Origin: a virus
Lineage: Duplodnaviria > Heunggongvirae > Uroviricota > Caudoviricetes
DNA: 64,000 bases
Virus record (IMG/VR): IMGVR_UViG_3300010344_001272
Coordinates: 11,046-75,045 of that record
Reading direction: 5' to 3' (one strand)
The notes under the pieces are model-generated. The model made no database searches and was not told the DNA's origin. It saw nothing but the letters and a program-made list of their open reading frames with translations. Position numbers and translations under genes: made by a program. Positions 4,878 through 23,457 of the stretch are shown in pieces; the first letter of the stretch is position 1, and each line of letters opens with the position of its first letter.

Positions 4878-4888
4878 AATTTCAAACG

Positions 4889-5706: not shown

Positions 5707-5722
5707 TGATATATAAATAAAA
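5707..5722 (+). promoter_or_regulatory. T4-late-like promoter motif GATATATAAATAAAAA
   Basis: immediately upstream of GIY-YIG gene. Confidence 0.4.
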
Positions 5723-5729
5723 ATGTATC

Positions 5730-6347: not shown

Positions 6348-6363
6348 CAATGATTAGAGTATT

Positions 6364-6593
<230 letters not shown>

Positions 6594-6671
6594 CACTGGA
6601 TGCCGATTGCCGGGGGAGGTATGTTCCCTGATTTGACGGCTATTATCAAAGTGCGGGCATGAAATCCTTTC

Positions 6672-6749
6672 GGAAGATTAGCTCAGTTGGTTCAGAGCAC
6701 TTGCCTTACAAGCAAGGGGTCGTGGGTTCGAATCCCTCATCTTCCACCA
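6672..6749 (+). tRNA. tRNA-Val(TAC), CCA encoded
   Basis: acceptor GGAAGAT/ATCTTCC, D arm GCTC..GAGC, anticodon stem CTTGC/GCAAG, loop CTTACAA. Confidence 0.85.
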
Positions 6750-6760
6750 AATAATTTGAT

Positions 6761-7267
6761 ATGGATTTTAAAGAATTTCCAATCAGACAACAAATGAACA
6801 GACATGATTGTTCAGTATGTGTCATTTGGTGTATACTTAGATATGCTGGAATAGATATTACTTACAGAGATTTATATCGCTTCATTCATCCTCCAATAGG
6901 CCCTAATGATGGGGTTTCTGGAGAACAAGTAATGAAAATACTTAGAAGTTTTGGAATTAATGTTGTTTCAGAAACTAGTAATATTTCAAAATTAAGAATT
7001 GATACAAATAATTGGCCCGTAATAGTCAGTATACAACACAAGAAAAAAAGAAATGTTGATTGGAAAAACATAATCGAATTTGGACATTATGTAATTGTTT
7101 TAAAAGTTGATGATAAAAAAGTAAAATTCATGGATCCAAATTATGGAAAGATAAGGTCTTTAAATATTAAAGATTTTAAAGACAGATGGCATGATGGAGA
7201 TGAAAATGAACTTTGTAAATATCCAGCAATCATATGTATGGTAAATGAATCGAAATCTATACTTTAA
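6761..7267 (+). CDS. putative papain-like cysteine peptidase (C39-like)
   Basis: N-terminal HDCSVCVIWCILRYAGI and later GHYVIVLKV...DPNYG match Cys/His arrangement of C39 peptidase domains. Confidence 0.45.
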   Translation: MDFKEFPIRQQMNRHDCSVCVIWCILRYAGIDITYRDLYRFIHPPIGPNDGVSGEQVMKILRSFGINVVSETSNISKLRIDTNNWPVIVSIQHKKKRNVDWKNIIEFGHYVIVLKVDDKKVKFMDPNYGKIRSLNIKDFKDRWHDGDENELCKYPAIICMVNESKSIL

Positions 7268-7559
7268 GGATGGTGTTCTTTTTGCTAAGGGCTACGAAAG
7301 AGTGGTTCACGGAGGGCGAGGAGATTATATAGAGTTAACTAAAGATCAAATAGTTGTAGAACTTAGATCAAAATTTAAACAATCACTTCCGGAAGCCGTT
7401 TCTGACGAGCCCTTTTATTACTACTGGTTGGTTCCAATTGGAAGAGAAGAAAAAATTTACTGGCAGTGCAGAACTGTAAATTATGCAGATTACAAAATAG
7501 GATATTATTATATAAGTCCTAAGTTAATTATACCATTTGATAGTACAGAATTATTTTAA
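7245..7559 (+). CDS. hypothetical protein
   Basis: 104-aa ORF. Confidence 0.3.
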   Translation: MNRNLYFKDGVLFAKGYERVVHGGRGDYIELTKDQIVVELRSKFKQSLPEAVSDEPFYYYWLVPIGREEKIYWQCRTVNYADYKIGYYYISPKLIIPFDSTELF

Positions 7560-7571
7560 TAAATAAGATAT

Positions 7572-7931
7572 ATGGAAGACAAAGATTTAGATATTAGAAT
7601 CACTCGGGGATCAGGCCCAGGGGGACAACATAAAAACAAGGTGGAAACTTGTGTTATTATAACTCATATTCCAACTGGTTTACAAGAGAAGTGTCAAGAA
7701 ACTCGTAGTAAAATTCAGAATCTTGAACTTGCTAAAGAAAGAATTAAAGCGAAAGTAGAGAAACTACAAGAGCAAAAAATTCAAGAGGCAAAAAATGAAC
7801 GCAGACGTGAATTAATTAAAAACCAGAAAGTAGTTCGTACATATAACTTTGTAAGAAATGAAGTTTATGATCATCGGACAAAAACAAAACACGATCTGAA
7901 AAAGTTTATGAGAGGAGAAATTGATCTATGA
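7572..7931 (+). CDS. arfB: ArfB-like peptidyl-tRNA hydrolase / class I release factor GGQ domain protein
   Basis: ITRGSGPGGQHKNKVETCV GGQ motif block followed by basic C-terminal tail. Confidence 0.75.
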   Translation: MEDKDLDIRITRGSGPGGQHKNKVETCVIITHIPTGLQEKCQETRSKIQNLELAKERIKAKVEKLQEQKIQEAKNERRRELIKNQKVVRTYNFVRNEVYDHRTKTKHDLKKFMRGEIDL

Positions 7932-8119
7932 AACTTACACTCGAAAAAGATATAAAAGTAGCTGTTGAAGTAAATGGTGAAAAATTCATTGGATCCGAAG
8001 AGGGAATTTTATACCAAAGTATTACAGATACAGAAATTTTACTTTATATTAAAACAGAACCTGAAGGAAAAGAAATAAAAATTAAAATAGCAAAAGATGT
8101 TAATAATCAAGGTGCATGA
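7928..8119 (+). CDS. hypothetical small protein
   Basis: 63-aa ORF, overlaps start of bS21 gene in another frame. Confidence 0.25.
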   Translation: MKLTLEKDIKVAVEVNGEKFIGSEEGILYQSITDTEILLYIKTEPEGKEIKIKIAKDVNNQGA

Positions 8120-8297
8120 GGGTGAAAATATTGACAAAGCCCTTAAGAGATTCAAAAGAAAATTCAACATGATTGGAGTTGCTAGTGAATTACGTGAAAG
8201 AGAACAATTCACAAAGCCTTCTGTAAAAAAGAGGCAAATAAAACAGAAAGCTAAATACAGACAATACATGCAGAGAAAAGAAGAAATGGGCGAATAA
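8097..8297 (+). CDS. rpsU: ribosomal protein bS21
   Basis: MLIIKVHEGENIDKALKRFKRKFNMIGVASELREREQFTKPSVKKRQIK matches the S21 family pattern over its full length. Confidence 0.8.
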   Translation: MLIIKVHEGENIDKALKRFKRKFNMIGVASELREREQFTKPSVKKRQIKQKAKYRQYMQRKEEMGE

Positions 8298-8301
8298 CAA
8301 T

Positions 8302-8377
8302 GGTTCGGTAGCTCAATGGATAGAGCAACAGCCTTCTAAGCTGTCGGTTGAGCGTTCGAGTCGCTCCCGAATCACCA
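8302..8377 (+). tRNA. tRNA-Arg(TCT), CCA encoded (second copy of this anticodon)
   Basis: acceptor GGTTCGG/CCGAATC, D arm GCTC-AATGGATA-GAGC, anticodon stem ACAGC/GCTGT, loop CTTCTAA. Confidence 0.85.
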
Positions 8378-8393
8378 ATTTAAATTTTCATTT

Positions 8394-8876
8394 ATGACAG
8401 CACTTTATATTATAATGTTAACCATATTTGTTGGTTATATTTCATGGATATGGGCCAGATATGGTGTATTACCATCTATTTCCCATAGTTATTATTCACT
8501 TCCCGACAATCTTAAATTTATATTTACTTTATGGTCTTGGGGATATGCAATTCCAGCTATCATTGTAGCTTCAACACCATTAATGTTTTTTGCCGGGGCG
8601 GGAATTTGTTTTGTAGGTGCGGCAGCAGCGTATCGAGAAAAAATGACCGAGACTGTTCATATAATTGGAGCAGCATGCGCAATTATTTTTAGTCAATTAT
8701 CTATAATAATCGATTTTGATATGTGGTATGTTACGGTTGCTTTTGCTGCAATTGCTTTACCACTTGCCTTAACAAGATTTTCAAAGAAAGGAATATGTCC
8801 AAATAGAACTTGGTGGGTTGAAATTTTAGCATTTATAACAATAGCTTTAGTATTAGGAATAAAATTATGGTCGTAA
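8394..8876 (+). CDS. polytopic membrane protein
   Basis: about 5 hydrophobic helices. Confidence 0.4.
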   Translation: MTALYIIMLTIFVGYISWIWARYGVLPSISHSYYSLPDNLKFIFTLWSWGYAIPAIIVASTPLMFFAGAGICFVGAAAAYREKMTETVHIIGAACAIIFSQLSIIIDFDMWYVTVAFAAIALPLALTRFSKKGICPNRTWWVEILAFITIALVLGIKLWS

Positions 8877-9142
8877 AGTTGGTATCATATGATGGTTCAT
8901 ATCCAAACTTATGTAGTGGTAAGTTAATTCTTTCTGTTGATGAAAAGGAATGGGTTTTTCCATCATATTGTTTATCAAGTGGCGGCAGCGTATGGTTTGA
9001 CAATGACTGGAGTGAACATGTTGAAGATGGTCCTTGGGGTATAGGTGAATGGCCTGAAGGTTTTCCTGAAGAAGCTAAGGAAGAAGCTTTAAGTGTTATT
9101 AACGAAGAAATTTCCTGGGGTTGTTGCGGAGGATGTGTATGA
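8867..9142 (+). CDS. hypothetical protein
   Basis: 91-aa ORF with C-terminal CCGGC. Confidence 0.3.
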   Translation: MVVKLVSYDGSYPNLCSGKLILSVDEKEWVFPSYCLSSGGSVWFDNDWSEHVEDGPWGIGEWPEGFPEEAKEEALSVINEEISWGCCGGCV

Positions 9143-9384
9143 CAGCGCAAGAATACATAGATGCTTGGGATATAAGATGGGAAAATCATTTTAGATACTC
9201 TGTTTTAGTTGAAGAATTAAGTAATTTACAAGGAATTGATGTAGTTGCCCAGATGGAATCTGTTTTAATAGCCGAAATGACTAAGGAGGTTGACAAACAT
9301 ATACAAAACGATATACAGAGATTATTTAATATGAGTATACAACAATCAGAAAAAATTAACACAATAGTCGATGGAATCCTATAA
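9121..9384 (+). CDS. hypothetical protein
   Basis: 87-aa ORF. Confidence 0.3.
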   Translation: MLRRMCMTAQEYIDAWDIRWENHFRYSVLVEELSNLQGIDVVAQMESVLIAEMTKEVDKHIQNDIQRLFNMSIQQSEKINTIVDGIL

Positions 9385-10003
9385 TTCCATACCAAAATGG
9401 AGTGAAGATTATTTTGGCAAATATGTATTCGCATTTGACAAAATAGACGGTTCCAATTTCAGAGCTGAATGGAATCGAAAATTATCTAAAAAATCCCGCT
9501 TTACATATGGTTTTGGAAAATTTGGAACCAGACAAGACAGAATAAAATTTATTAAAGATCCATATTGTGAAGGTATTGAAATATTTAAAAACAAATTTTC
9601 GGAAAAATTAGATAAGATATTCTTAGAAAACAAAACGTTTAGAAACATTGATAATATCACAGTATTTGGAGAATTTTATGGATCTAAAAGCTTTGCTGGA
9701 ATGCATGATTGGAGTGAAAAACATGATGTCAAAATTTTTGATGTATTTTTAGATAGAAAAGGAATTTTGCCCCCATCTGATTTTATAAAAATATTTGAAG
9801 GATTAGATACATGCAAACTTATATTTGCGGGAATTTTTTCTCAAAGTTATTTAGAGTTAATTGAAAAAAATATATTAAATTTACAAGAAGGAGTTGTTTG
9901 TAAAGGGGTTGAAAACCAAGAGGTATTCATGTTCAAAATAAAAACACTGAAATGGCTTCAGAAGGTAAGAGATTTATATGGTAATGAAAGAACTGATTAT
10001 TAG
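9371..10003 (+). CDS. ATP-dependent RNA ligase, Rnl2-like nucleotidyltransferase domain only
   Basis: motif I KIDGSNFRAEW, motif III FGEFYG, motif IV EGVVCKG, motif V FKIK. Confidence 0.6.
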   Translation: MESYNSIPKWSEDYFGKYVFAFDKIDGSNFRAEWNRKLSKKSRFTYGFGKFGTRQDRIKFIKDPYCEGIEIFKNKFSEKLDKIFLENKTFRNIDNITVFGEFYGSKSFAGMHDWSEKHDVKIFDVFLDRKGILPPSDFIKIFEGLDTCKLIFAGIFSQSYLELIEKNILNLQEGVVCKGVENQEVFMFKIKTLKWLQKVRDLYGNERTDY

Positions 10004-10262
10004 ATCGGCAATTACAGTTGACGAACTTGTTCTTCAATGGGAAGCAAAACAAGAGTTACGATTTATTTTTGATGGATTTCCTCAATTAAATATACTTCGT
10101 CCAACTGCATCATTGATCGCAAATGATTTAGTTTCAGTACAACCCATGGCAGCTCCTACAGGAGTATTCCATTATATAGAATATGTTTATAATGGAACCC
10201 CAGATAGACCGTTTAATGAAATGCAACATGATTGCGGAATTGAAAAAACTTTAAGTGAATGA
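9978..10262 (+). CDS. 94-aa ORF homologous to the N-terminal conserved core of gp23-family major capsid proteins (fragment or mini-paralog)
   Basis: LVSVQPMAAPTGVFHYIEYVYNG aligns with VNVVPMPGPTGVISYLDYVYAGG of the full capsid gene at 39095 and with T4 gp23 ICGVQPMNSPTGQVFALRAVYG. Confidence 0.4.
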   Translation: MVMKELIIRSAITVDELVLQWEAKQELRFIFDGFPQLNILRPTASLIANDLVSVQPMAAPTGVFHYIEYVYNGTPDRPFNEMQHDCGIEKTLSE

Positions 10263-10444
10263 AGAACTATAAATCTAAAAGAAAAGATTTAAGAGATCGA
10301 AAAAGAGAGATAATGGAAGTTGGATTTGACTCTTCAAAAGATAGAAAAAGAGTTGTTGAATCCTTTAAAAGAGAATCTCGTTCATTGAAAAGAAGTGAAA
10401 AGAATTCTTTCAAGAATTCTTGGAGAAGTGAATACGGTATTTAA
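10259..10444 (+). CDS. hypothetical basic protein
   Basis: 61-aa K/R-rich ORF. Confidence 0.2.
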   Translation: MKNYKSKRKDLRDRKREIMEVGFDSSKDRKRVVESFKRESRSLKRSEKNSFKNSWRSEYGI

Positions 10445-10521
10445 GGCCTTATAGCTCAATTGGATAGAGCACCTGACTACGGATCAGGAGGTTATGGGTT
10501 CGACTCCCTTTAAGGTCACCA
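10445..10521 (+). tRNA. tRNA-Arg(ACG), CCA encoded
   Basis: acceptor GGCCTTA/TAAGGTC, D arm GCTC-AATTGGATA-GAGC, anticodon stem CCTGA/TCAGG, loop CTACGGA. Confidence 0.85.
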
Positions 10522-10523
10522 TC

Positions 10524-10597
10524 GCCTTCATAGCTCAATTGGATAGAGCATCTGACTTCGGATCAGATGGTTGAGGGTTCGAATCCTTCTGAGGGCG
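10524..10597 (+). tRNA. tRNA-Arg(TCG)
   Basis: acceptor GCCTTCA/TGAGGGC, same D arm, anticodon stem TCTGA/TCAGA, loop CTTCGGA. Confidence 0.85.
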
Positions 10598-10613
10598 CTT
10601 AATATATAATAAG

Positions 10614-10814
10614 ATGAGTGATAAACTTGAAAATTTGTTGGCTATTTTGTTCTGTGTCATATTTGCAATTAGTGTAGGAATATATTACTTTGTTAGTATG
10701 ACTATTGGGGGGATGGATGGCCGGTTTGACGATTTGTTTGGGGATTTCATACATGTTAGCTCAATCATTTCGTTATGCTTGGATAAGTATCAAGCAGCTA
10801 TCAGACCAAATTGA
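10614..10814 (+). CDS. small membrane protein
   Basis: 66 aa, one or two TM helices. Confidence 0.25.
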   Translation: MSDKLENLLAILFCVIFAISVGIYYFVSMTIGGMDGRFDDLFGDFIHVSSIISLCLDKYQAAIRPN

Positions 10815-10848
10815 TAGTTTAAAAAAATAAAGAGTATGGACGACGAGG

Positions 10849-11082
10849 GTGGTAGTCAAAAAAGAAAAATTATCAACTGTGTTTCTAATGTTAGGAACTT
10901 TCTTCAATCCATTAGGATACGATGCGCTATTGAAGGCTTTACTGGATTGGACAGGCAATTATTGGCTTTCAATTTCCATTTTTTACCTTGTCTCAGCTTG
11001 TTTCTTTACGCTATATTTTGTATTTTCTAAAACAAATCCATTGAATTTGTTTCGAAAAAATAAAAAAAATGCCCATTCATAA
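10849..11082 (+). CDS. small membrane protein
   Basis: 77 aa, hydrophobic. Confidence 0.25.
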   Translation: MVVKKEKLSTVFLMLGTFFNPLGYDALLKALLDWTGNYWLSISIFYLVSACFFTLYFVFSKTNPLNLFRKNKKNAHS

Positions 11083-11383
11083 AATATTCGTAAAAATTTT
11101 TTTAAAATTATTTTCTGGATTCAAATTTTGTTTTATATTCACGTCATATTTCTTACACAATATGACCCTTTTAAAGCCCACCTTTTACGGAGACACAATG
11201 GAACTTCTGGTTCCAGTTAAATCCAATGATTATTTTTTAGAACAGGTTGACGTCGATATGTTTACTGGAAAAAGACGGTACTATAATATTATTGACGGGC
11301 ACGCGAAGGTCTATGGTTATTTACCCGGAGAAGGCGAACGTATTCCTAATCCAAAAACAACAATTTGGTTCTTTCCAAACTAG
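11069..11383 (+). CDS. hypothetical protein
   Basis: 104-aa ORF. Confidence 0.3.
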   Translation: MPIHKIFVKIFLKLFSGFKFCFIFTSYFLHNMTLLKPTFYGDTMELLVPVKSNDYFLEQVDVDMFTGKRRYYNIIDGHAKVYGYLPGEGERIPNPKTTIWFFPN

Positions 11384-11404
11384 TAACATTTAAATTTATA
11401 CAAT

Positions 11405-11887
11405 ATGAAAAAAGTTTTGCTCTTCCTCGTAATGTTTGTTTCACTCAGTATGATAACAAACGCACAAACTCCTATGGCATTACGTGTCCAGGGAGGGTAT
11501 TCTTGGATTAATGGTGTCGTTGGTGGTGAACTTCAAATTGGAAAATTTGGAGTAAGCGGTGGATGGATGCCATGTAAAATGCCATTGAGTGGTGATAAAA
11601 TAAGCTCAATTGGTGGTGCTCTTACTTACTACACACTTCCTGCAGACGAAGAAGGATATTCTTATTATGCATCAGTGGGTGTTGCTTCTCAAGGCTACCG
11701 ATATGAATTAACAAGTTCATGGGGATATGGCGAAGAAGCAACTTTACCTATGACAATCATAATGGTTGGTTACAAATATGACAGTGGCGGAGTTAACTTT
11801 AAACTCGGCGGAGGTTATGGATGGTGTGAAGAAGCTGGCGCCTGGACATTTGAAGCAACATTGGGATTTACACTTTTCGGAAATTAA
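11405..11887 (+). CDS. secreted Gly/Tyr-rich protein, possible small beta-barrel
   Basis: signal peptide MKKVLLFLVMFVSLSMITNAQT, alternating G/Y/W-rich strands. Confidence 0.4.
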   Translation: MKKVLLFLVMFVSLSMITNAQTPMALRVQGGYSWINGVVGGELQIGKFGVSGGWMPCKMPLSGDKISSIGGALTYYTLPADEEGYSYYASVGVASQGYRYELTSSWGYGEEATLPMTIIMVGYKYDSGGVNFKLGGGYGWCEEAGAWTFEATLGFTLFGN

Positions 11888-11888
11888 C

Positions 11889-12554
11889 ATGAAAAAACTA
11901 ATCTTTTTGCCGATTTTGATATTATTGATGTTTTCGTGTGAAGAACCGAACACAGCACCTAATATCGTTAATTTGATAGCAAGTGCTCAAACGGTAGAAA
12001 GCGAAGGAACATTGATGTTATCATGTGAAGCCCAAGACCTAGATGGAGACCCTATAATGTACAGATGGTCTTGTGTTTCAGGAACTTTCTTATCTGGAAC
12101 GTCTTCTTCGACTGTAATGTGGAAGGCTCCTCGTACGAATTCTGAAACAATTTCTAAGATTACTGTGCAAATAGCTGATGCAGAACATCCATTCGATAGT
12201 CCATTCATGGATTCACGCGCCATAATAATAATGGTAGACCCCTCTGCGCCAAGTTGTGTTAAAGAAAATTATGGAACGATGATAATCAAGAACACTAATA
12301 CTTATGCTATACGAGTTTATTGTTCAAGAGAAGACCCAAGCTGCCCACAGTGTGTAACTATTGACCCAACTCCAGTGGTAGCATTGGCTCCTAATCAATC
12401 CACAACGTTTAATATCAAACCTGGAAATATTGTGGCATGGTGTATTTCAGAAGCTAATTGGCAATTGGGGTTGGGGGGTCCTTGGACTACAACTATACCA
12501 TTTCCATTAACTCAATGTGAAATAAGAACATTAAATTGGGGACCTGGCAAATAA
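11889..12554 (+). CDS. lipoprotein with Ig/PKD-like segment and C-terminal Cys-rich small beta domain
   Basis: start at internal ATG giving MKKLIFLPILILLMFSC lipobox (ORF-track N-terminal extension overlaps upstream gene); C-terminal CVKENYGTMIIKNTNTYAIRVYC shared with 13108 ORF. Confidence 0.45.
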   Translation: MKKLIFLPILILLMFSCEEPNTAPNIVNLIASAQTVESEGTLMLSCEAQDLDGDPIMYRWSCVSGTFLSGTSSSTVMWKAPRTNSETISKITVQIADAEHPFDSPFMDSRAIIIMVDPSAPSCVKENYGTMIIKNTNTYAIRVYCSREDPSCPQCVTIDPTPVVALAPNQSTTFNIKPGNIVAWCISEANWQLGLGGPWTTTIPFPLTQCEIRTLNWGPGK

Positions 12555-12565
12555 CAATAAAAAAT

Positions 12566-13090
12566 ATGAAAAATCTACTAATCATTTTCATCACAACATT
12601 GTTTCTTACCTCGTGTGGGTGGGGAACCTTCGTGCAGGATATGAATTCTGCAAACAATAATCCTAACCGAACTTCATTTGCTGCAGAAATGCAAGAAATT
12701 CGAGATGCTGGCGGTGATATAACGTATACTGCTTTTATGACACATAATGCCATATTTCATGGTGATAATGTACCAAAAACGTTGGAGCAGCACAATAGTT
12801 ATTTCTGTGAATATACTCTTAACGATCAAACATATTTCAAAATTGTTGCATATGAAGCCACAGATCACTTGACAGCACTTGTTTGTACGGATCTAAAACT
12901 TGAAGGTTATTATGAACAAGAAGGACCATTCAATTGGTTTGCTGGGTGTATTGATATGGCTGATGATCAGAAATGCAAATTGCTTTTTTCTGCAGAGTCT
13001 TCTACTTTTCTTGTTATTTATAAAAAGGGAGAATATGGAAGGGCCTTTAAAGGAAGCATATTAAGTGGAATAAATGTACCTCGTAATTAA
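12566..13090 (+). CDS. lipoprotein
   Basis: MKNLLIIFITTLFLTSC lipobox at first ATG; ORF-track start 12536 is a TTG upstream. Confidence 0.45.
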   Translation: MKNLLIIFITTLFLTSCGWGTFVQDMNSANNNPNRTSFAAEMQEIRDAGGDITYTAFMTHNAIFHGDNVPKTLEQHNSYFCEYTLNDQTYFKIVAYEATDHLTALVCTDLKLEGYYEQEGPFNWFAGCIDMADDQKCKLLFSAESSTFLVIYKKGEYGRAFKGSILSGINVPRN

Positions 13091-13107
13091 TTAATTAACA
13101 CAAATAA

Positions 13108-13356
13108 ATGAAAACAAGAGCTCTTTTAAAATTTTCAGCTATTATAGTAGCTGGATTGATGATCCTAGGATTAAATTCCTGTACTAAAAAACCTTGTGAA
13201 AAGGATAATTTTGGAACTGTAATTGTCACTAACCATACAGGTCAGGTGATTTATGTCGATTGTACACAGGCAGGCAGCGATTATAATGACGAACGAATGC
13301 TTGGTATCGGACAGTCAACTACATATCACATGACTCCCGGACAAATAACCGAATAG
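13108..13356 (+). CDS. small lipoprotein of the CxKDNFGTVIVTN family
   Basis: lipobox ILGLNSC; CEKDNFGTVIVTNHTGQVIYVDC parallels 11889 ORF C-terminus. Confidence 0.4.
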   Translation: MKTRALLKFSAIIVAGLMILGLNSCTKKPCEKDNFGTVIVTNHTGQVIYVDCTQAGSDYNDERMLGIGQSTTYHMTPGQITE

Positions 13357-13547
13357 GCAATTGAGGCCTGGGACTATCCGAACGGTTCATGGTATACTGA
13401 CAGCTATTATCTCGGTCAGTGCGAAACACATAACGATCCCTGGACAGACGGTAAAAAGAAAAGTACCAAAAACTTGGAAAAATTGGATGTGAAGGTAAAT
13501 TCCACTATAAAGATTACCCACGAATAATTTTTCAATTTCACATATAA

Positions 13548-13578
13548 AAAGAGCTCTAGTTTAGAGCTCTTTTTTTGT
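13548..13578 (+). terminator. Rho-independent terminator
   Basis: AGAGCTCTA gtt TAGAGCTCT followed by T7. Confidence 0.65.
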
Positions 13579-13580
13579 TT

Positions 13581-13598
13581 GGATATATAATAAAATTA
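13581..13598 (+). promoter_or_regulatory. T4-late-like promoter motif GGATATATAATAAAATTA
   Basis: 10 nt upstream of M23 peptidase ATG. Confidence 0.4.
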
Positions 13599-13607
13599 TT
13601 TCTATGG

Positions 13608-14558
13608 ATGAAGTTTTATACATATCAAAAAGATACTGTTTCGTATCAACGATATAAGTTTTTTAGACTAAAATTCATCATTCCCTTTTTACTTTTTCAA
13701 TCAGTTATAGCATTTATTGTTTTTATTTTAATTGCTACATTTTATACAACACCTAAAGAAAAAATATTAAAACAAGATGTTGCATATTTGTTATACGAAT
13801 TTGATAATGTAAATAAAAGGATGATTGAAACTGAAGCCACATTAGAACAAATTAAACAAAATGATAGTATCATTTATCAATCCTTGTTCGATGTTAATAC
13901 CATAGCAAAAAAGGAATTAAATGTTTATTATGAGGATTTAGAAGGAAATAAATACAGTCAAATGGTTGAATTAACAAATCAAAAACTATCTGAATTAAGC
14001 GCAAGATTAGCAAAAGAATTATATCGTTTAGATGGAATGGTTAAAACTGCTTATTCACATCAAGAAATGCTAACTCATTTGCCTGCTATTCAGCCTATTG
14101 ATAATAAAGATTTAAAAAGGACTGCGTCAGGATGGGGTATGAGAATTCATCCAGTTTATAACATTCAAAAATTCCACTATGGATTGGACTTTACAGCACC
14201 TACAGGAACTTCTATTTATTCAACTGGGGACGGGGTAGTTGAATATGCAATTCCTTATACTAGCAAAGATTCCCAAGGCTATGGAAATGTGATGATTATC
14301 AATCATGGATATGGATATAGAACCTTATATGCCCATATGAATAAATTTAAAGCAAAGATTGGACAGCAAGTTAAAAGAGGAGAAATAATTGGATATGTTG
14401 GAAATACAGGAATATCTACAGGTCCTCATTTACATTATGAAGTTATAAAGGATGGGCAAAAAGTAAATCCTATCTATTATCTATTTAATAGTTTGACTCC
14501 TGAAGAATATCAAAAAATAATCGAGATATCGAATTCAATAACTAAATCTTATGATTAA
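13608..14558 (+). CDS. M23 family metallopeptidase (LytM-like), membrane anchored
   Basis: HYGLDFTAPTGTSIYSTGDGVV ... NHGYGYRTLYAHM ... GNTGISTGPHLHYEV; N-terminal TM helix; start moved to first ATG after promoter box. Confidence 0.75.
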   Translation: MKFYTYQKDTVSYQRYKFFRLKFIIPFLLFQSVIAFIVFILIATFYTTPKEKILKQDVAYLLYEFDNVNKRMIETEATLEQIKQNDSIIYQSLFDVNTIAKKELNVYYEDLEGNKYSQMVELTNQKLSELSARLAKELYRLDGMVKTAYSHQEMLTHLPAIQPIDNKDLKRTASGWGMRIHPVYNIQKFHYGLDFTAPTGTSIYSTGDGVVEYAIPYTSKDSQGYGNVMIINHGYGYRTLYAHMNKFKAKIGQQVKRGEIIGYVGNTGISTGPHLHYEVIKDGQKVNPIYYLFNSLTPEEYQKIIEISNSITKSYD

Positions 14559-14584
14559 AATGGAAGATTAAAACTTTTGATGAA

Positions 14585-14974
14585 TTGAAGAATAAAATAA
14601 ATAAAATAACTATGGAAGATATTACGAAAGAACAATTTCTTGAGGTTTATAATCAGCATTTGCCAAATAAGTGGATAAAATTTATTTACAAATATTTTTC
14701 TCAAGGAACTACGGAAGAAAATTTGAAACCAAGTAAAATAATAACTGCTATCTTACTTATTTTATTTGTTTCAGGATTTTTTGCTACAGTTTTAGGATTA
14801 CCCAAGGCAGCCATTTTGCCTATAGTAATACTTTATGCTATCATATTAACAGCATTAGTTGGTTCAATGTTTTCAGCAGTAATATTGAATAATTTAAGAA
14901 TACGTAAAATACGAAAAAAATTAGGGTTAACAGTGTGGCAATATAATTTACTTGCAGACTTATACGTAGAATGA
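14585..14974 (+). CDS. membrane protein
   Basis: two TM helices. Confidence 0.35.
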   Translation: MKNKINKITMEDITKEQFLEVYNQHLPNKWIKFIYKYFSQGTTEENLKPSKIITAILLILFVSGFFATVLGLPKAAILPIVILYAIILTALVGSMFSAVILNNLRIRKIRKKLGLTVWQYNLLADLYVE

Positions 14975-15453
14975 AAAAACTTTTAATAATATTATCTCTC
15001 ATATTATTTTCATGTGGCCCTTCTCCAGAGCAAAAAATAATAAAATCTTTTGAAGATGGCAGACATCGTAATCATTTTAAAATAAATAATGTATCTATTT
15101 ATGACACTATTTATTATGTAGATATTATTGATTCACTTGAATTTTACGAAAATAAAGTTCGTTTAATTCGAACACAAATAGATGGTCTTAGGGGATTTAG
15201 AGATAGTGTTTTTAAATTAAATTACCCAGATTCTACTCGCAGATCAATTCTTCAAAAGAGATTTGATTTGGACAGGGAATTACAAAGAGATTTACATCAT
15301 GCTTCAAGCCAACAAATGAATAGATATACATTTTATAATATGAATGATAGTATTTGTGGTTATCTAGTCAAAATTTATACTCCTCGAGATACATTTGATT
15401 TTGTTGTTACATCAAAATATACAATAGTTTGTCCAACTTTTATGTTTTATTAA
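14971..15453 (+). CDS. lipoprotein
   Basis: MKKLLIILSLILFSCGPSPE lipobox. Confidence 0.4.
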   Translation: MKKLLIILSLILFSCGPSPEQKIIKSFEDGRHRNHFKINNVSIYDTIYYVDIIDSLEFYENKVRLIRTQIDGLRGFRDSVFKLNYPDSTRRSILQKRFDLDRELQRDLHHASSQQMNRYTFYNMNDSICGYLVKIYTPRDTFDFVVTSKYTIVCPTFMFY

Positions 15454-15454
15454 A

Positions 15455-16048
15455 ATGAATCCATTTATTGTTTATAAGGAAATATTAGATAAATATCTGC
15501 ATTCTGATTCTTCTTTAAAATTGCAACAAGCTTGGAGTGAACCTCATAGAAAATATCACACAACTGAGCATTTAATATCTGTCTTAAAATATTTAGACAA
15601 ATATAGATTTGGGCTGCCTAATGAATTTTATGATGCTTTAGTGTTAGCTGCTTTTTTTCATGATTGTTACTATGATCCTAAAAGTTCTAGAAATAATGAA
15701 GATGAATCAATACGTCGATTTCTTTCTGAATTTCGAACAAAGGGTGATAATTGGAATATACGGAATGCTGTGATGGCAATGATCGAAGCAACTAAATATC
15801 GCAAACGTCCATCACAATATTTAGTTCGTTTATTTTGGGAAGCGGACAATCATCAATTTTATGATGGATATGAAACACTTTTAAAGAATGAACATTTAAT
15901 TAGACAAGAATTTATTCATCTTCCTAAGTCTGTTTATAGAACTAATCGTATAAAATTTCTAAAAACTAACATCGGTCTTTTTAATTCTAATGTTGATAAT
16001 GATCTAAGAAAACTGATGAAATACGTCGAGGATATATATAAAAATTAA
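15455..16048 (+). CDS. HD-domain phosphohydrolase-like protein
   Basis: HRKYHTTEHL ... AAFFHDCYYDP resembles H..H...HD metal site. Confidence 0.4.
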   Translation: MNPFIVYKEILDKYLHSDSSLKLQQAWSEPHRKYHTTEHLISVLKYLDKYRFGLPNEFYDALVLAAFFHDCYYDPKSSRNNEDESIRRFLSEFRTKGDNWNIRNAVMAMIEATKYRKRPSQYLVRLFWEADNHQFYDGYETLLKNEHLIRQEFIHLPKSVYRTNRIKFLKTNIGLFNSNVDNDLRKLMKYVEDIYKN

Positions 16049-16056
16049 TTATTCAG

Positions 16057-16422
16057 ATGGAAGATGTTAAGTTAGTAGCGGAATCATTACAAGACTTTGA
16101 TAAAATTGATGAAGGAATAGGTGATTTCTTCGCTGGTGCCAAATCAGCAATTTCTTTAGCCCTTAAAAATCCTAATGATGAAGATAAAGTAAATTCAGCT
16201 GTAAAAACTGCTTTTGCTAGACAATTTGGAAAATATCCTAAAATTAAAGAGACTATACTAGGATGGGAATTACAAAAGAAAATAGAGCTATTAAAATTAG
16301 CAGCTAAGAGATTAGAAGATAAAAAGATTGGGTCTTTATCCGTTGTTAAAAAGGATGGAAAAATTTTAGTTGTTGGAGTTCCATTAGAAGGAGGAGCAAC
16401 AACTTCGACAGGAGTTAGATAA
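16057..16422 (+). CDS. hypothetical protein
   Basis: 121-aa ORF. Confidence 0.35.
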   Translation: MEDVKLVAESLQDFDKIDEGIGDFFAGAKSAISLALKNPNDEDKVNSAVKTAFARQFGKYPKIKETILGWELQKKIELLKLAAKRLEDKKIGSLSVVKKDGKILVVGVPLEGGATTSTGVR

Positions 16423-16469
16423 AAAAAGCTGCAAAAAATTTTTTAGATTCAAAAACTTTTTGTATTTTT

Positions 16470-16487
16470 GCGTATATATAATAAAAG
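16470..16487 (+). promoter_or_regulatory. T4-late-like promoter motif GCGTATATATAATAAAAG driving a 23-codon micro-ORF (16501-16572)
   Basis: motif, tiny ORF MKCHSIHISSISSTESCLWPSYVN, then terminator. Confidence 0.35.
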
Positions 16488-16596
16488 AAATTTTTATAGA
16501 ATGAAGTGTCATAGCATACATATTAGTTCGATTAGTTCAACTGAAAGTTGTCTGTGGCCTTCTTATGTAAATTGAAGTACTAACTTTAAAAATTAA

Positions 16597-16630
16597 GGGA
16601 AGGCCTAAAAAGACCTTCCCTTTTTTGTTT
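16597..16630 (+). terminator. Rho-independent terminator
   Basis: GGGAAGG ... CCTTCCC followed by TTTTTTGTTTT. Confidence 0.65.
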
Positions 16631-16635
16631 TATAT

Positions 16636-16711
16636 GCTCTTTTAGCTCAGACGGTAGAGTACTTCCTTGGTAAGGAAGAGGTCTTGGGTTCGATCCCCAA
16701 AAAGAGCTCCA
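16636..16711 (+). tRNA. tRNA-Thr(GGT), CCA encoded
   Basis: acceptor GCTCTTT/AAAGAGC, anticodon stem CTTCC/GGAAG, loop TTGGTAA, T arm TTGGG-TTCGATC-CCCAA. Confidence 0.85.
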
Positions 16712-16713
16712 AT

Positions 16714-16803
16714 GGATGGGTGGCCGAGTGGTCTATGGCGTTAGTCTTGAAAACTAATGATCGAGTGATTGGTCCGTGGGTTCGAATCCCACCTCATCCG
16801 CCA
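16714..16803 (+). tRNA. tRNA-Ser(TGA), type II, CCA encoded
   Basis: acceptor GGATGGG/CTCATCC, 3-bp D stem GCC/GGC, anticodon stem TTAGT/ACTAA, loop CTTGAAA, long variable arm, T arm GTGGG-TTCGAAT-CCCAC. Confidence 0.8.
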
Positions 16804-16805
16804 AA

Positions 16806-16895
16806 GGAGGTGTAAAGCGTAATTGCGTATCGCCCCGGTCCCGAAAACCGGTTCCGTCGTAAGATGGAGTGTAGGTTCGAGTCCTATCGCCTCCG
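16806..16895 (+). tRNA. tRNA-Ser(CGA), type II
   Basis: acceptor GGAGGTG/CGCCTCC, anticodon stem CCGGT/ACCGG, loop CCCGAAA, variable-arm stem TCCGTC/GATGGA, T arm GTAGG-TTCGAGT-CCTAT. Confidence 0.7.
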
Positions 16896-16901
16896 CAAAG
16901 A

Positions 16902-16974
16902 CCCGATGTGGCGCAACGGTTAGCGCAAGCGGCTTATATCCACGAGGTTGGGGGTTCGAATCCCTCCATCGGGA
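16902..16974 (+). tRNA. 73-nt tRNA with anticodon loop CTTATAT (TAT, Ile/AUA); weak anticodon stem
   Basis: acceptor CCCGATG/CATCGGG 7/7, D arm GCGC-AACGGTTA-GCGC, T arm GGGGG-TTCGAAT-CCCTC; anticodon stem AGCGG/CCACG has two mismatches. Confidence 0.5.
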
Positions 16975-16979
16975 CTATT

Positions 16980-17061
16980 CCGGATGTGGATGAATGGTTT
17001 AGTCACCAGTCTGATACACTGGGTTCTTTGAACAATGTAGGTTCGAGTCCTACCGTCCGGA
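16980..17061 (+). tRNA. 82-nt type-II-like tRNA with anticodon loop CTGATAC (GAT, Ile)
   Basis: acceptor CCGGATG/CGTCCGG, anticodon stem CCAGT/ACTGG 5/5, 14-nt variable arm with GTTC/GAAC stem, T arm GTAGG-TTCGAGT-CCTAC; long variable arm atypical for Ile. Confidence 0.5.
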
Positions 17062-17098
17062 CTAAGTATTTTCTTGAAATAATATGCTGTTGATTTTA

Positions 17099-17115
17099 GA
17101 TATATAAAATAAAAA
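17099..17115 (+). promoter_or_regulatory. T4-late-like promoter motif GATATATAAAATAAAAA
   Basis: 3 nt upstream region of endonuclease paralog. Confidence 0.4.
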
Positions 17116-17117
17116 GA

Positions 17118-17750
17118 ATGGCAAGAAAATCAAGAAAATTTATTTGTGAAAAATGTGGAAATGAATTTGAATCAAAAAGAAAAGATGTTAGATTTTGTTC
17201 TAATAGTTGCAGGGCTTCAATTATAAATATGGGTAGAAAACCATTTAATTTTGTTGAAGGAAAAATTAGATATTGTTTAACATGCGGAAAAAAACTTCAT
17301 CATCAAACTAAAACAGGATATTGTGTTGACCATTATGTAACAGATGATTTTAAAGACAAAATTAGCAAAGGCGTTAAAAAAATAGGTGGGGGCGGATATC
17401 GAAAAAACTCAGGAAGAGGTAAACATGGGTGGTATAAAGGATTTTGGTGTGACAGTAGTTGGGAATTAGCTTGGGTTATTTATAATTTAGATCACGGAAT
17501 AAAATTTGAACGTAATACTAAAGGATTTGAATATATTTTTGAGGAAAAAATTTATAAATATTATCCAGATTTTAAAATATTAAAAGACAATTTGTACATA
17601 GAAATAAAAGGATGGATAGATGAAAAAAACAAAGCAAAAATTTCTCAATTTAAAGGTTTTTTAAAGGTATTATTTAGAAATGACATGAAATATATTTTTG
17701 AATACGTTGAAAATAAATACGGAAAACAATTTATAAAAATGTATGAATAA
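17118..17750 (+). CDS. putative homing-type endonuclease, paralog of 3390-4052
   Basis: N-terminal CEKCGNEFESKRKDVRFCSNSC zinc ribbon and C-terminal YYPDFKILKDNLYIEIKGW block. Confidence 0.4.
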   Translation: MARKSRKFICEKCGNEFESKRKDVRFCSNSCRASIINMGRKPFNFVEGKIRYCLTCGKKLHHQTKTGYCVDHYVTDDFKDKISKGVKKIGGGGYRKNSGRGKHGWYKGFWCDSSWELAWVIYNLDHGIKFERNTKGFEYIFEEKIYKYYPDFKILKDNLYIEIKGWIDEKNKAKISQFKGFLKVLFRNDMKYIFEYVENKYGKQFIKMYE

Positions 17751-17834
17751 CATGGAGAGTTGCCAGAGTGGTCTATCGGGGCAGCCTGCTAAGCTGTTGA
17801 ACGCGATATGTGTTCCGTGAGTTCGAACCTCACA
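17744..17834 (+). tRNA. tRNA-Ser(GCT), type II, CCA encoded
   Basis: acceptor GGAGAGT/ACTCTCC, anticodon stem GCAGC/GCTGT, loop CTGCTAA, T arm GTGAG-TTCGAAC-CTCAC. Confidence 0.8.
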
Positions 17835-17895
17835 CTCTCCGCCACTGAAAACGATGCTAAAGTTATCCCTGTTTTAAGTAGCGGAAGTTTTAGGG

Positions 17896-17982
17896 ATGAC
17901 AAACTGGAGAGTTGGCAGAGTTGGTCTATTGCGGCAGCCTGGAAAGCTGTGATCGAGAGATTGGTCCGTGGGTTCGAATCCC
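17896..17982 (+). tRNA. tRNA-Ser(GGA), type II
   Basis: acceptor GGAGAGT/ACTCTCC, anticodon loop CTGGAAA, T arm GTGGG-TTCGAAT-CCCGC. Confidence 0.8.
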
Positions 17983-18075
17983 GCACTCTCCGCACTTGGT
18001 GTAATCACGGAACGAACCGTGTCTTTGGAAATGGCCACCAAAGAAGCATTTGATGTTGATGCAGCCTTGGTATAC

Positions 18076-18140
18076 GGTGGTATTAGTGTTAACGGTTAGC
18101 ACGCAAGTCTGTGGAACTTGTAGTGAAGGGTTCGAATCCC
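18076..18140 (+). tRNA. tRNA-His(GTG) with encoded G-1 opposite C73
   Basis: G-1 then acceptor GTGGTAT/ATACCAC 7/7, D arm GTGT-TAACGGTTA-GCAC, anticodon stem CAAGT/ACTTG, loop CTGTGGA; T stem only 3 clean pairs. Confidence 0.75.
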
Positions 18141-18178
18141 ACATACCACCAAATGGACAAAATTGTCCCTTCTAGACT

Positions 18179-21996: not shown

Positions 21997-22335
21997 ATGA
22001 GTGACGAACATGAAGATCAAATATTTGTAAGAAATCACTTTACAGACTTTGAAAAACTTCTTTTTGCACAAGATGAAATAAAACAATTAAAAAAGAACAA
22101 TTCAGAATTAAGTGTTGAAGTTGGAAAGTGTCAATCTTACATAACTGAACTTGAAGAAACTATTCGGCAATTAAATTCCAATCCAAGATCAGAAGAAGAA
22201 AAAAAGGAGTTAAGAAAGTTACAATATAACGAAGAACTTTTGAGACTAAATAAACAATTAATGGAAAAGTGCCGCAAATTAAAAAAGGACAACGACGAAT
22301 TAATTTATAAATTGTGTAAAAATGAAAACAGGTAA
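21997..22335 (+). CDS. hypothetical coiled-coil protein
   Basis: heptad-rich 112-aa ORF. Confidence 0.35.
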   Translation: MSDEHEDQIFVRNHFTDFEKLLFAQDEIKQLKKNNSELSVEVGKCQSYITELEETIRQLNSNPRSEEEKKELRKLQYNEELLRLNKQLMEKCRKLKKDNDELIYKLCKNENR

Positions 22336-22936
22336 TACGAGGGCAATTTGCAAAAAAGGCAAGCATGGCATGACCAAGCACGGAGTTTACTCATATAAAA
22401 ATGGAACGATTGTTTCCATTCGGTGTTTAGAATGTGCGAAAGAACAAAAAAATATTCGTCGGCAAAACAAAGAAAAATATGAACATGACAAAGCATATTC
22501 TAAACAATGGCATAAAGATAACAAAGATAAACTTCGCCAGAAACGTAGTGTTTTGAGAACCAAAGAACAAGAACAAAGAAAAAGAAGAGTTGAAAATTAT
22601 TTTAAGGAAATGAAACCTGAAATAATGAGACTATTAAAAACTCTCGAATCTACGTTGACCTTTAAGCAAATAAAAAGCCACTGTTATCGTTTTAACATCA
22701 CTTCTATTTATAAAATAAAAGAATTCATTATAAACAACAAAAGAAGTCAATTATTGGATCGTGAAGCATACATGCAATCATATGTTGTGAAATATGCATG
22801 GGGAATTGCCGGCAATGGATTTAATAATTATTCTTCATTGCCTGAACGAACAAAAGAAAAAATAAGAAAGGAATACAAGGATAAGGCCAAAAATATTGTA
22901 AATAAAAAAATGGTCGAACTTTGTGCTAATATTTAA
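22322..22936 (+). CDS. hypothetical K-rich protein with zinc-finger-like Cys pairs
   Basis: 204-aa ORF. Confidence 0.35.
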   Translation: MKTGNTRAICKKGKHGMTKHGVYSYKNGTIVSIRCLECAKEQKNIRRQNKEKYEHDKAYSKQWHKDNKDKLRQKRSVLRTKEQEQRKRRVENYFKEMKPEIMRLLKTLESTLTFKQIKSHCYRFNITSIYKIKEFIINNKRSQLLDREAYMQSYVVKYAWGIAGNGFNNYSSLPERTKEKIRKEYKDKAKNIVNKKMVELCANI

Positions 22937-22945
22937 AAAATTGTT

Positions 22946-22953
22946 TATATTTG
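22946..22953 (+). promoter_or_regulatory. Bacteroidetes-type -7 box TATATTTG upstream of GC-rich ncRNA candidate
   Basis: matches TAnnTTTG consensus. Confidence 0.3.
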
Positions 22954-22957
22954 TTCT

Positions 22958-23150
22958 TTAAATAACTAAGAGGACTTGTCGCTTCGCAAGAAGAGGAACT
23001 TCAGGACATCTCTGCTAAATGCGGGAGGGCTAAACCCCGATACTACCGCAGAGGATGCGAGCCAAACAGACCGAGGCGGAAAGCAGGCCAATGAGGTCGG
23101 GTTGGTGCTTAGAGAAATGACGAGATAAAACAGAATCCTGGGTACGCTCA
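22958..23150 (+). ncRNA. candidate structured ncRNA (unclassified): about 190-nt GC-rich ORF-free island
   Basis: roughly 50% GC versus about 30% background, no ORF on + strand, several short hairpins including CTTC-GCAA-GAAG tetraloop and GGG-CTAAA-CCC. Confidence 0.4.
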
Positions 23151-23172
23151 AGTTATTTTTAAAAATATTTTT

Positions 23173-23457
23173 ATGGCAGAAAATAGAGGTAATCGAAATC
23201 GAAGAACTTCCCTAGAACAATTAGAGAAGTTTCCATTGTCCGAAGAGGAAAAAATTAATTATTTTAGAATTGCTTTGGGACTTCAAAAAATTGGAGTTGA
23301 CAATGAAATGGCAGACCGCATCATACAAACATATGAAGCGGTAACTCATTTAGGAGGAAATTTCAGTATTCATGATGCCGTTGATATAGAATTATCTCTT
23401 GATCGAAAATATCGTAAAAAAGATGTTGTCGTAAGGGCTGAACCAGATGTACAATGA
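23173..23457 (+). CDS. hypothetical protein
   Basis: 94-aa ORF. Confidence 0.3.
   Translation: MAENRGNRNRRTSLEQLEKFPLSEEEKINYFRIALGLQKIGVDNEMADRIIQTYEAVTHLGGNFSIHDAVDIELSLDRKYRKKDVVVRAEPDVQ

Follow-up and report, generated by a model that had tools for sequence, protein, structure and literature searches.

A putative phage-encoded miniature RNase P RNA with a type-A-like catalytic domain

Positions 22961-23158 on the plus strand of a phage DNA fragment are likely to encode a miniature RNase P RNA, phage-borne and equipped with a type-A-like catalytic domain, that matures phage pre-tRNAs. The fragment, a stretch of 64,000 nt referred to here as the window, comes from a tailed phage, has a GC content of 32%, and counts a head maturation protease and a major head protein among its products. 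The two universal ribozymes include RNase P RNA, and a typical bacterial type A RNase P RNA measures 330-400 nt; the phage form measures about 198 nt. It is virtually certain that the element is a real, selected, structured RNA, and its homology to RNase P RNA (Rfam clan CL00002) is equally hard to doubt.

A GC-rich island and its coding potential

The RNA occupies an island between the plus-strand open reading frames 22322-22936 and 23173-23457. An earlier note, made from the sequence without database searches, had described a GC-rich island here, and this is borne out: the 190 nt at 22961-23150 have a GC content of 51.1%, compared with a window mean of 32.1% (sd 6.1, z = 3.1). GC peaks of equal height elsewhere in the window are mainly tRNA genes. 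The note's statement that the island has no plus-strand reading frame was mistaken, since a frame of 50 amino acids with a TTG start runs from 22976 to 23128 on that strand. The minus strand has a frame of 61 amino acids, which the note had dismissed as an artefact. In two near relatives (L001 and L002), a 1-nt indel breaks both frames, while the RNA differs at only 3 of 198 positions and the flanking proteins are 81-93% identical. The island is considered non-coding because this indel disrupts the frames on both strands. The dismissal of the minus-strand frame was therefore justified, and the homologues, when checked for a shared protein-coding frame, conserve none; a protein-coding reading of the island is thus ruled out.

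The open frames of 50 and 61 amino acids, together with scores below the Rfam cut-offs (see below), might be taken to suggest a remnant of a host rnpB gene, captured and now decaying, or an artefact of coding or composition. This explanation is extremely improbable, given that 40 distinct sequences have one reduced architecture in common, each of its helices showing compensatory changes, that the 1-nt indel breaks both frames, and that the RNA is better conserved than the genes on either side of it. The single-sequence folding energy of the island, compared with shuffled sequences, was uninformative (z = -0.43 and -0.41 for the two strands); support for the structure comes from covariation and not from folding energy.

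Homology to RNase P RNA

An Rfam scan of the 501 nt around the island returned RF00373 (RNaseP_arch) at 22971-23156 on the plus strand, with a score of 29.4 bits and E = 9.9e-7. Infernal aligned the full model, from position 1 to 288, over 186 nt, skipping the model's specificity domain. No RNase P family reached its Rfam gathering score, this best match standing against a cut-off of 84 bits for RF00373, and scans of the whole window, at gathering thresholds or at E <= 0.05, returned tRNAs only and missed the RNase P RNA. A trivial explanation by a known Rfam family, which the earlier note had allowed for, is therefore half realized: a match exists, but far below the cut-off and lost at the scale of the whole window. 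The relatives described below score 25-47 bits against RNaseP_arch. SRP RNA and other known families were rejected, the non-RNase P matches in the 501-nt scan all having E >= 2.4. The resemblance to SRP RNA domain IV that the earlier note had raised and doubted is spurious, as the scan contained no SRP match. The note had settled on a structured non-coding RNA of unknown class; the description as structured and non-coding stands, while the class is a known one, that of RNase P RNA homologues. Among the candidates it listed, a ribozyme agrees with this homology, a defence or anti-defence RNA and a base-pairing sRNA found no support, and a decoy survives as a minor rival.

Relatives were sought using the pattern GAGGAANNTC-N(90-120)-TAGANNAATG-N(5-20)-ACAGAA, which demands a short distance between the conserved regions CR-I and CR-IV. 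This pattern matched 52 stretches in IMG/VR, many of them on contigs of 250-494 kb, and 54 in a species-representative genome set. A covariance model, R1, was then built on 11 sequences with a nested structure drawn up by hand, which left out P4 and P6. R1 scores 201.9 bits on the window, in a single copy, and 49 of its matches on viral contigs were accepted, 40 of them distinct; the contigs of these 40 relatives span 31-60% GC and share the same reduced architecture. Four DNA-pattern matches (L017, L023, L035 and L057) are AT-rich coding sequence and were rejected by R1. In the species-representative set, strong R1 matches were found solely on contigs of metagenome-assembled genomes (eight further contigs) and in none of the isolate genomes, and PHROG scans of the reading frames beside these strong matches were mostly empty. 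Phage genes and bacterial-type tmRNAs are present on the relatives' contigs. At the site beside homologues of the 94-aa downstream gene in three loci (L003-L005), the RNA is missing, and R1 finds none in these loci.

Sequence searches extended the family to named phages. BLAST of the window or of the element against GenBank phages gave weak matches to huge phages only, and further members were reached with other family members as queries. BLAST with family members followed by R1 identified four distinct huge-phage genomes in GenBank, namely LR756501/LR756503 (735 kb), LR756502 (642 kb), LR756511 (595 kb) and LR745206 (635 kb). A copy is also present in the cultured T4-like Stenotrophomonas phage DLP6 (KU682439.2, 105773-106020; R1 77.6 bits), where it fills an unannotated gap, with a tRNA-Arg gene beginning 5 nt downstream. 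The DLP6 genome paper makes no mention of RNase P.

The elements of the RNA, all on the plus strand, are as follows.

22920..22953 (+), possible Bacteroidota-type promoter, called from its position: TTTG at 22920-22923, a 22-nt spacer and TATATTTG at 22946-22953
22961..23158 (+), complete gene of the miniature RNase P RNA, about 198 nt (with P1 possibly reaching 22959-23160); matches to RNaseP_arch and R1
22961..22972 (+), P1 5' strand: AAUAACU (22961-22967) and GAG (22970-22972) pair with 23151-23157 and 23147-23149; covariation
22975..22981 (+), P2 5' strand, CUUGUCG, paired over 7 bp with UGACGAG at 23118-23124; complementarity and covariation
22982..22993 (+), P3 hairpin, CUUC-GCAA-GAAG; 99.1% paired
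22993..23006 (+), CR-I and P4 5' strand, GAGGAACUUCAGGA: CR-I GAGGAAcuUC at 22993-23002, bulged U at 23001; covariation
23007..23010 (+), P5 5' strand, CAUC, directly after P4, paired with GAUG at 23054-23057; 100% paired, three of four pairs covarying
23012..23015 (+), P6 pseudoknot 5' strand, CUGC, paired with GCAG at 23083-23086 in the P17 loop; covariation
23016..23053 (+), vestigial specificity domain, 38 nt: P7-like stem 23020-23024/23046-23050 and hairpin GGG-CTAAA-CCC at 23027-23038; covariation
23058..23060 (+), J5/15, CGA (GCGA; family consensus GCAA); conservation
23061..23106 (+), P15-P16-P17 arm: P15 23061-23063/23104-23106, P16 23069-23072/23095-23098, P17 23073-23077/23087-23091; covariation
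23076-23090 (+), P17 with its loop, GGCGGAAAGCAGGCC, the loop GCAG leading to P6; seen in the sequence
23100..23102 (+), L15 GGU; conservation
23110..23119 (+), CR-IV, UAGAGAAAUG, core 23111-23118; sequence and Rfam alignment
23125..23144 (+), J2/4 and CR-V, AUAAAACAGAAUCCUGGGUA: ACAGAA at 23130-23135 and P4 3' strand at 23136-23143; sequence and covariation
23130-23144 (+), CR-V, ACAGAA followed by UCCUGGGUA; sequence comparison
23147..23172 (+), P1 3' strand (23147-23157) and U/A-rich tail up to the ATG at 23173; sequence and covariation

Strong evidence for this structure came from pairing counts in an R1-derived alignment of the 40 distinct sequences, covering the nested helices and also P4 and P6, which are absent from the model. 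Pairing was observed in 95.7% of cells, compared with 63.5% in shuffled alignments (none of 500 shuffles reached the observed value) and 31-42% when the partner was slid by 1-3 columns. Compensatory changes, altering both sides, are present in 47 of the 55 pairs. The pairing of P4 and P6 emerged although R1 had not been fitted to it, and RNAalifold independently predicts P1, P3, P4, P5, the P7-like stem and P15-P17. CR-I, CR-IV and CR-V are colinear, and the helices of the catalytic domain are complete (P1-P6 and P15-P17). The hairpins and motifs that the earlier note had picked out (CUUC-GCAA-GAAG in P3, the GGG-CTAAA-CCC hairpin and several GC stems) are all present in the sequence.

Individual helices behave in the same way. 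All ten pairs of P1 have changed on both sides among the relatives, with 91-96% of cells paired, and a complementarity scan found perfect P1 helices of 8-12 bp with unrelated sequences. P2, whose 3' strand directly follows CR-IV as in the P1-P2-P3 framework, is complementary at 7 of 7 positions in 35 of the 40 relatives despite sequence divergence (96.7% of cells paired, five of seven pairs changed on both sides), and in L002 a G-to-A change turns its U-G pair into U-A. P3, which is very short in the window, comprises 10-40 nt in relatives. In P4, where 22998-23000 and 23002-23006 pair with 23136-23143, 99.0% of cells are paired and six of the eight pairs have changed on both sides. The P6 pseudoknot is paired in 89.3% of cells and has double changes in all four pairs, with examples such as CCACC/GGUGG, UAACC/GGUUA and CCGUU/AACGG. 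Within the arm, which also contains J15/16 AAACA (AAACAG) and J16/15 GGGU, P15, P16 and P17 are 97.5%, 96.1% and 85.7% paired, respectively, and every pair is double-changed.

Conservation of single nucleotides points to the same family. That the cores of CR-I, CR-IV and CR-V do not vary among the IMG/VR relatives is in part imposed by the search pattern; the same motifs, however, also occur in three members detected by BLAST (L114, L115 and L118). Unforced conservation was observed for L15 GGU (39 of 39 sequences), for the equivalents of A249 (40 of 40) and A248 (37 of 40), for the AAA of J15/16, for the first P5 pair, and for G23140 and A23144 in CR-V (39 of 39).

Comparison with E. coli M1 RNA, its numbering checked at U69, A248 and G292-U294, aligned CR-I, J5/15, J15/16, L15 GGGU, CR-IV, P2, J2/4 and CR-V colinearly with the window. 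P2 reads ACAGUCG/UGACUGU in E. coli and CUUGUCG/UGACGAG in the window, a helix of 7 bp in the same register in both, and P4 has an identical length in both, with U23001 at the place of the U69 bulge. P5 follows P4 directly in E. coli as it does in the window, and the J5/15 nucleotides 23058-23060 correspond to C247, A248 and A249. J15/16 is AAACAG in the window and AAAUAG in E. coli. The window's J16/15 GGGU equates with G291-U294, the 3'-CCA binding site, and its GGU with G292, G293 and U294. The window's CR-IV, UAGAGAAAUG, is colinear with UAGAUGAAUG in E. coli, and the ACAGAA of CR-V is followed by UCCUGGGUA in the window and by CCCGGCUUA in E. coli.

The largest difference lies in the specificity domain. 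In E. coli, the P7-P14 region that forms this domain spans about 150 nt. In the window, CR-II and CR-III are absent, and the P7-P14 region is replaced by the 38 nt that separate the P6 5' strand from the P5 3' strand. This stub is itself conserved: its P7-like stem of 5 bp is paired in 96.7% of cells, with four of five pairs covarying, and encloses a conserved asymmetric internal loop (G-R-A-G/C-G-N5-A-C) and a hairpin that is often GAAA-capped in the family. None of the 37 ungapped sequences lacks any of five stub nucleotides (G64, A66, G67, A85 and C86 in trimmed numbering). P18 is also absent in the window, where GGUGCU (23104-23109) leads directly into the UAGAG of CR-IV; inserts are found at this site in LR756501 and DLP6, and hairpin inserts in L114 and L115.

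tRNA context and a proposed role in 5' maturation

The genomic setting connects the RNA with phage tRNAs. In the window, 22 tRNA genes lie at 2849-18151, all on the plus strand. Across the 49 loci, all 351 tRNA genes are on the strand of the RNA and none is opposite, with at least one tRNA gene in 44 loci. A tRNA gene starts less than 20 nt beyond the 3' end of the RNA (the P1 3' strand) in 18 of the 49 loci, usually 2-7 nt beyond it. Where tRNAs adjoin, the RNA evidently belongs to a polycistronic tRNA transcript. The window copy stands by itself downstream of the array, 4.8 kb from the nearest tRNA gene.

This arrangement suggests an alternative in which the RNA derives from RNase P RNA but is a non-catalytic element of tRNA operons, either a spacer that guides host nucleases or a stabiliser of the transcript. 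The tight junctions with tRNAs in many loci (0-7 nt) would suit such a role, and other large structured RNAs, GOLLD and ROOL, occur near phage tRNAs. Both of these RNAs have been described (PMC12286853). The solitary position of the window copy argues against an operon element, as does the fact that the conserved positions are those of catalysis and substrate binding, beyond the helices alone; we consider this alternative very unlikely.

The TAnnTTTG box noted earlier is indeed present upstream of the RNA, and the promoter G at 22953 precedes the first base of P1 by 6-8 nt. The wider motif, TTTG-N(18-23)-TAnnTTTG, is not enriched in the window (7 matches vs 5.1 expected), and the call of a promoter is for that reason one of position. 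A sigma-70 scan gave nothing useful, and a terminator scan found no canonical intrinsic terminator.

From these data we infer how a phage RNase P RNA could be transcribed, how its ends could form, which protein it could use, how it could act and what the phage could gain. In the window phage, the RNA would be transcribed from its own promoter, and in many relatives it would be co-transcribed within the tRNA array, where RNase P cleavage of the following tRNA would define its 3' end, and 3' processing of the preceding tRNA its 5' end. The RNA would fold around the P4 and P6 pseudoknots, bind pre-tRNA through pairing of L15 GGU with CCA and through a contact of J5/15 with N(-1), and remove the 5' leader by hydrolysis, acting in trans and most likely joined with host RnpA in a holoenzyme. 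The host protein is the suggested partner because no phage rnpA was found by tblastn in the window and the relatives' loci, or by a pattern scan of IMG/VR, both searches being of low sensitivity. CCA is encoded by 10 of the 22 tRNA genes in the window and by about half of phage tRNAs overall, which is consistent with the retention of GGU.

Published biochemistry supports such a scheme. The catalytic domain of type A RNA is catalytic on its own, needs a P6-like interaction, and can dispense with P18 when the specificity domain is absent (PMC5839562), and archaeal T-type RNase P RNAs without most of this domain are active (PMC7191817). The set of elements kept (the catalytic core, P6 and L15 GGU) and lost (the specificity domain and P18) by the phage RNA matches these findings, and a trans-acting pre-tRNA 5' endonuclease is therefore proposed. 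Judged from sequence, catalytic activity of the phage RNA in pre-tRNA maturation can be predicted with good confidence. Cleavage may be poor in efficiency or specificity, since CR-II and CR-III, which serve in docking of the T/D-loop elbow of the tRNA, are absent.

The J5/15 contact offers a possible variation on this scheme. In E. coli, A248 contacts the N(-1) nucleotide of the substrate. The equivalent position in the window, 23059, is G in the window's clade and A in 37 of 40 relatives; this G counts against the catalytic reading. C is found at -1 in 39% of tRNA leaders in the clade with G at 248, compared with 11% where the RNA has A (Fisher p = 4e-4, the clade consisting of three close phages). 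These sequence data would suit an enzyme that works on its own substrates and suggest a possible coevolution of 248 with N(-1), as a lead from three closely related phages.

A second alternative is that the RNA mimics the RNase P RNA core as a decoy or sponge, diverting host RnpA or pre-tRNAs and so shutting down or re-routing host tRNA maturation without catalysis. The missing specificity domain, the change at the A248 equivalent in the window clade, and the failure to find a phage protein partner can all be accommodated by this model, which also has a precedent in the one RNase P-like RNA so far recorded from a virus, that of camelpox virus, which was inactive (PMC3001073). A decoy would, however, have no need for GGU (39 of 39 sequences), the bulged U in P4, the adenines of J15/16 or a covarying P6, and RNase P RNAs reduced to their catalytic domain are catalytic (PMC5839562). 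Moreover, the gene lies within tRNA operons of the phage itself and on their strand, such that a decoy damaging tRNA maturation would harm the phage itself. We therefore regard a decoy as unlikely.

If the RNA acts as an RNase P ribozyme, a phage with 20 or more tRNA genes would gain its own capacity for 5' maturation. Possible benefits include the capacity to process 20-70 phage pre-tRNAs arriving in a burst, freedom from host rnpB expression after takeover, and altered specificity. Given that the host already has RNase P, any selective benefit is conjectural.

Significance and comparison with known systems

A full-text literature search of incomplete coverage, with most subscription journals outside its reach, yielded no phage RNase P RNA, no report of a functional virus-encoded one and no account of this reduced architecture from a phage or a bacterium; a miniature RNase P RNA of phages has probably not been reported before. 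A wider proposal, which seems to us evenly balanced, is that many large and huge phages, from T4-like phages of 168 kb to the 735-kb record holder, carry an RNase P ribozyme without a specificity domain that would be the first functional viral one and the smallest natural RNase P RNA of bacterial type, freed from operons by tRNA processing, perhaps tuned through 248:N(-1), and making 5' maturation independent of host RNase P or resistant to changes in it.

If active, the phage RNA would provide a natural test of the minimal needs of RNase P, including the roles of the specificity domain, P18 and P6, and the copy in the cultured phage DLP6 makes its function directly testable. If the proposal is true, the translation functions of phages, which include tRNAs, tmRNA and theta ribozymes for 3' ends, would extend to maturation of the 5' end. 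A phage RNase P RNA would also account for unannotated gaps in phage tRNA arrays, this miniature class being overlooked by standard Rfam annotation. Its compact scaffold suggests uses in structural work and in applications of the external-guide-sequence (EGS) type.

For the RNase P-like RNA of camelpox virus and other orthopoxviruses, neither a setting in tRNA arrays nor a catalytic core backed by covariation is known to us. Like the phage form, that RNA is virus-encoded and resembles RNase P RNA; unlike it, it belongs to a eukaryotic virus, does not cleave pre-tRNA in vitro, and has a weak structural similarity (PMC3001073).

A closer functional parallel is with the theta (minimal HDV-like) ribozymes, which are also phage-encoded in tRNA arrays and have been proposed to confer host-independent tRNA maturation (PMC10879173). 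Theta ribozymes self-cleave in cis at tRNA 3' ends, whereas the phage RNase P RNA would cut 5' leaders in trans, and the two folds are unrelated. For tRNA 5' processing, the theta-ribozyme study names the universal cellular RNase P only, and none that is phage-encoded (PMC10879173). In circularised megaphages, Rfam scans gave only tRNAs and one tmRNA (PMC8172020).

The archaeal T-type (RNaseP-T) of Pyrobaculum and other Thermoproteaceae shares with the phage RNA the design principle of dispensing with the specificity domain, and nothing more. In one archaeal lineage, the T-type RNA is the only cellular RNase P and has archaeal protein partners, while the phage form is an additional, virus-borne copy in bacterial systems. 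Furthermore, unlike the T-type, the phage form has retained P6 together with a P15-P17 arm that is bacterial-like and contains GGU, and the best clan match of the window RNA is RF00373, not RNaseP-T. The reductions of the specificity domain in the two forms are evidently independent.

Parallels exist with engineered minimal RNase P RNAs. Eco CP RPR, the E. coli catalytic domain, and Micro P share the element set of the phage RNA, namely the catalytic domain and a required interaction through P6 or a P6-mimic, P18 being dispensable after removal of the specificity domain (PMC5839562). These engineered RNAs are laboratory deletions with reduced efficiency; the phage form, in contrast, is natural, is under purifying selection, and has a conserved stub of internal loop and hairpin.

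The phage RNA is most similar to bacterial type A RNase P RNA (RF00010). It has P1, a P2 of 7 bp, P3, P4 with its bulged U, P5, P6 and P15-P17 in the same order and register, together with GAGGAA, GCAA at J5/15 (in the family), AAA at J15/16, GGU in L15, the UAGAnnAAUG of CR-IV and the ACAGAA...GGnUA of CR-V, and it presumably uses RnpA as type A does. It differs from type A in its length of about 198 nt, in the replacement of P8-P14 with CR-II and CR-III by a 38-nt stem and hairpin, in the loss of P18 from the window form, in scores far below the RF00010 and RF00373 cut-offs, and in being phage-encoded within tRNA arrays. It is set apart as a variant of type A because it has neither P18 nor the specificity domain with CR-II and CR-III and falls short of every Rfam cut-off. 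Structurally it is a reduced variant of the bacterial type A RNA; the archaeal T-type is an analogue, to which it does not belong.

Position 248 and the tRNA leaders

The RNase P RNA (RPR) of the window clade, which comprises the window and the related loci L019 and L024, carries a G at the position equivalent to E. coli A248 in J5/15 (window 23059). Among the tRNA genes of this G clade, counted from the window (2849-18151), L019 and L024 and so drawn from three close relatives, 11 of 28 have C at leader position −1, versus 29 of 257 in phages with A at this RPR position (Fisher p = 4e-4). U(−1) predominates in the A248 group (72%). The association between the base at the 248 equivalent and N(−1) may reflect enzyme-substrate coevolution.

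tRNA, tmRNA and protein-coding genes

Three additional or unusual tRNAs are possible in the window:
16806-16894, sub-threshold match to the tRNA-Sec model (37.1 bits), absent from the ARAGORN calls
2955-3006, partial tRNA match (model positions 10-63)
3039-3127, 89-nt "tRNA-Asp", called by ARAGORN only

Rfam models "Plastid-psbl-rps4" and "Plastid-ycf2" match the antisense strand of tRNA genes at window 17789-17841 (−) and at several other loci; we rejected these plastid elements as model artefacts antisense to tRNA genes.

Some RPR-bearing phages encode CUA-anticodon tRNAs, which ARAGORN labels "tRNA-Pyl", and tmRNAs that lie no more than a few kb from the RPR and tRNA arrays:
L021 8568-8641, CUA-anticodon tRNA
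L027 12076-12152, CUA-anticodon tRNA
L030 3246-3318, CUA-anticodon tRNA
L037 5497-5648, CUA-anticodon tRNA
L051 9933-10005, CUA-anticodon tRNA
L031 1263-1644, phage tmRNA gene
L046 1020-1390, phage tmRNA gene
L051 5069-5412, phage tmRNA gene

The five tRNAs are predicted amber suppressors, which points to TAG-recoded genetic codes in some of the phages that carry an RPR.

One ORF lies immediately upstream of the window RPR:
22322-22936 (+), ORF encoding a highly basic, Lys/Arg-rich protein of 204 aa

Its product has no PHROG match. Synteny of the ORF with the RPR is confined to the two closest relatives, and a role for the protein as an RPR cofactor is unsupported.

Structural variation among reduced RNase P RNAs

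Some members of the miniature RPR family have one or two additional hairpins at the exact site of type A P18:
L114 ~5105-5135, P18-site hairpin insert (LR756501, 735 kb)
L115 ~3972-4005, P18-site hairpin insert (phage DLP6)

Because hairpins occupy the P18 site in these two loci, loss of P18 is not universal across the family. In LR756501, ACAGGA also replaces ACAGAA in CR-V.

Two further styles of reduced RPR were observed on viral contigs:
L038 10595-10802, ~207 nt (IMGVR_UViG_3300028920_000026, 190 kb)
L028 676-885, scoring 63.5 bits

The L038 RNA, which exceeds the Rfam RNaseP_bact_a cut-off (118.5 versus 100 bits), has P8, CR-II and a P18-like hairpin and seems to lack P12-P14 and P16-P17. 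The L028 RNA partly keeps the S-domain, and its P15 is closed as a loop.

Weak matches (21-42 bits) to R1, our covariance model of the miniature family built from 11 sequences, were found on six contigs from DPANN archaeal metagenome-assembled genomes (L060, L073, L083, L085, L095 and L102), assigned to Aenigmarchaeota, Micrarchaeota or, for others, only "uncultured archaeon". All six have short CR-I to CR-IV spacing, and they may be truly small archaeal RNase P RNAs.
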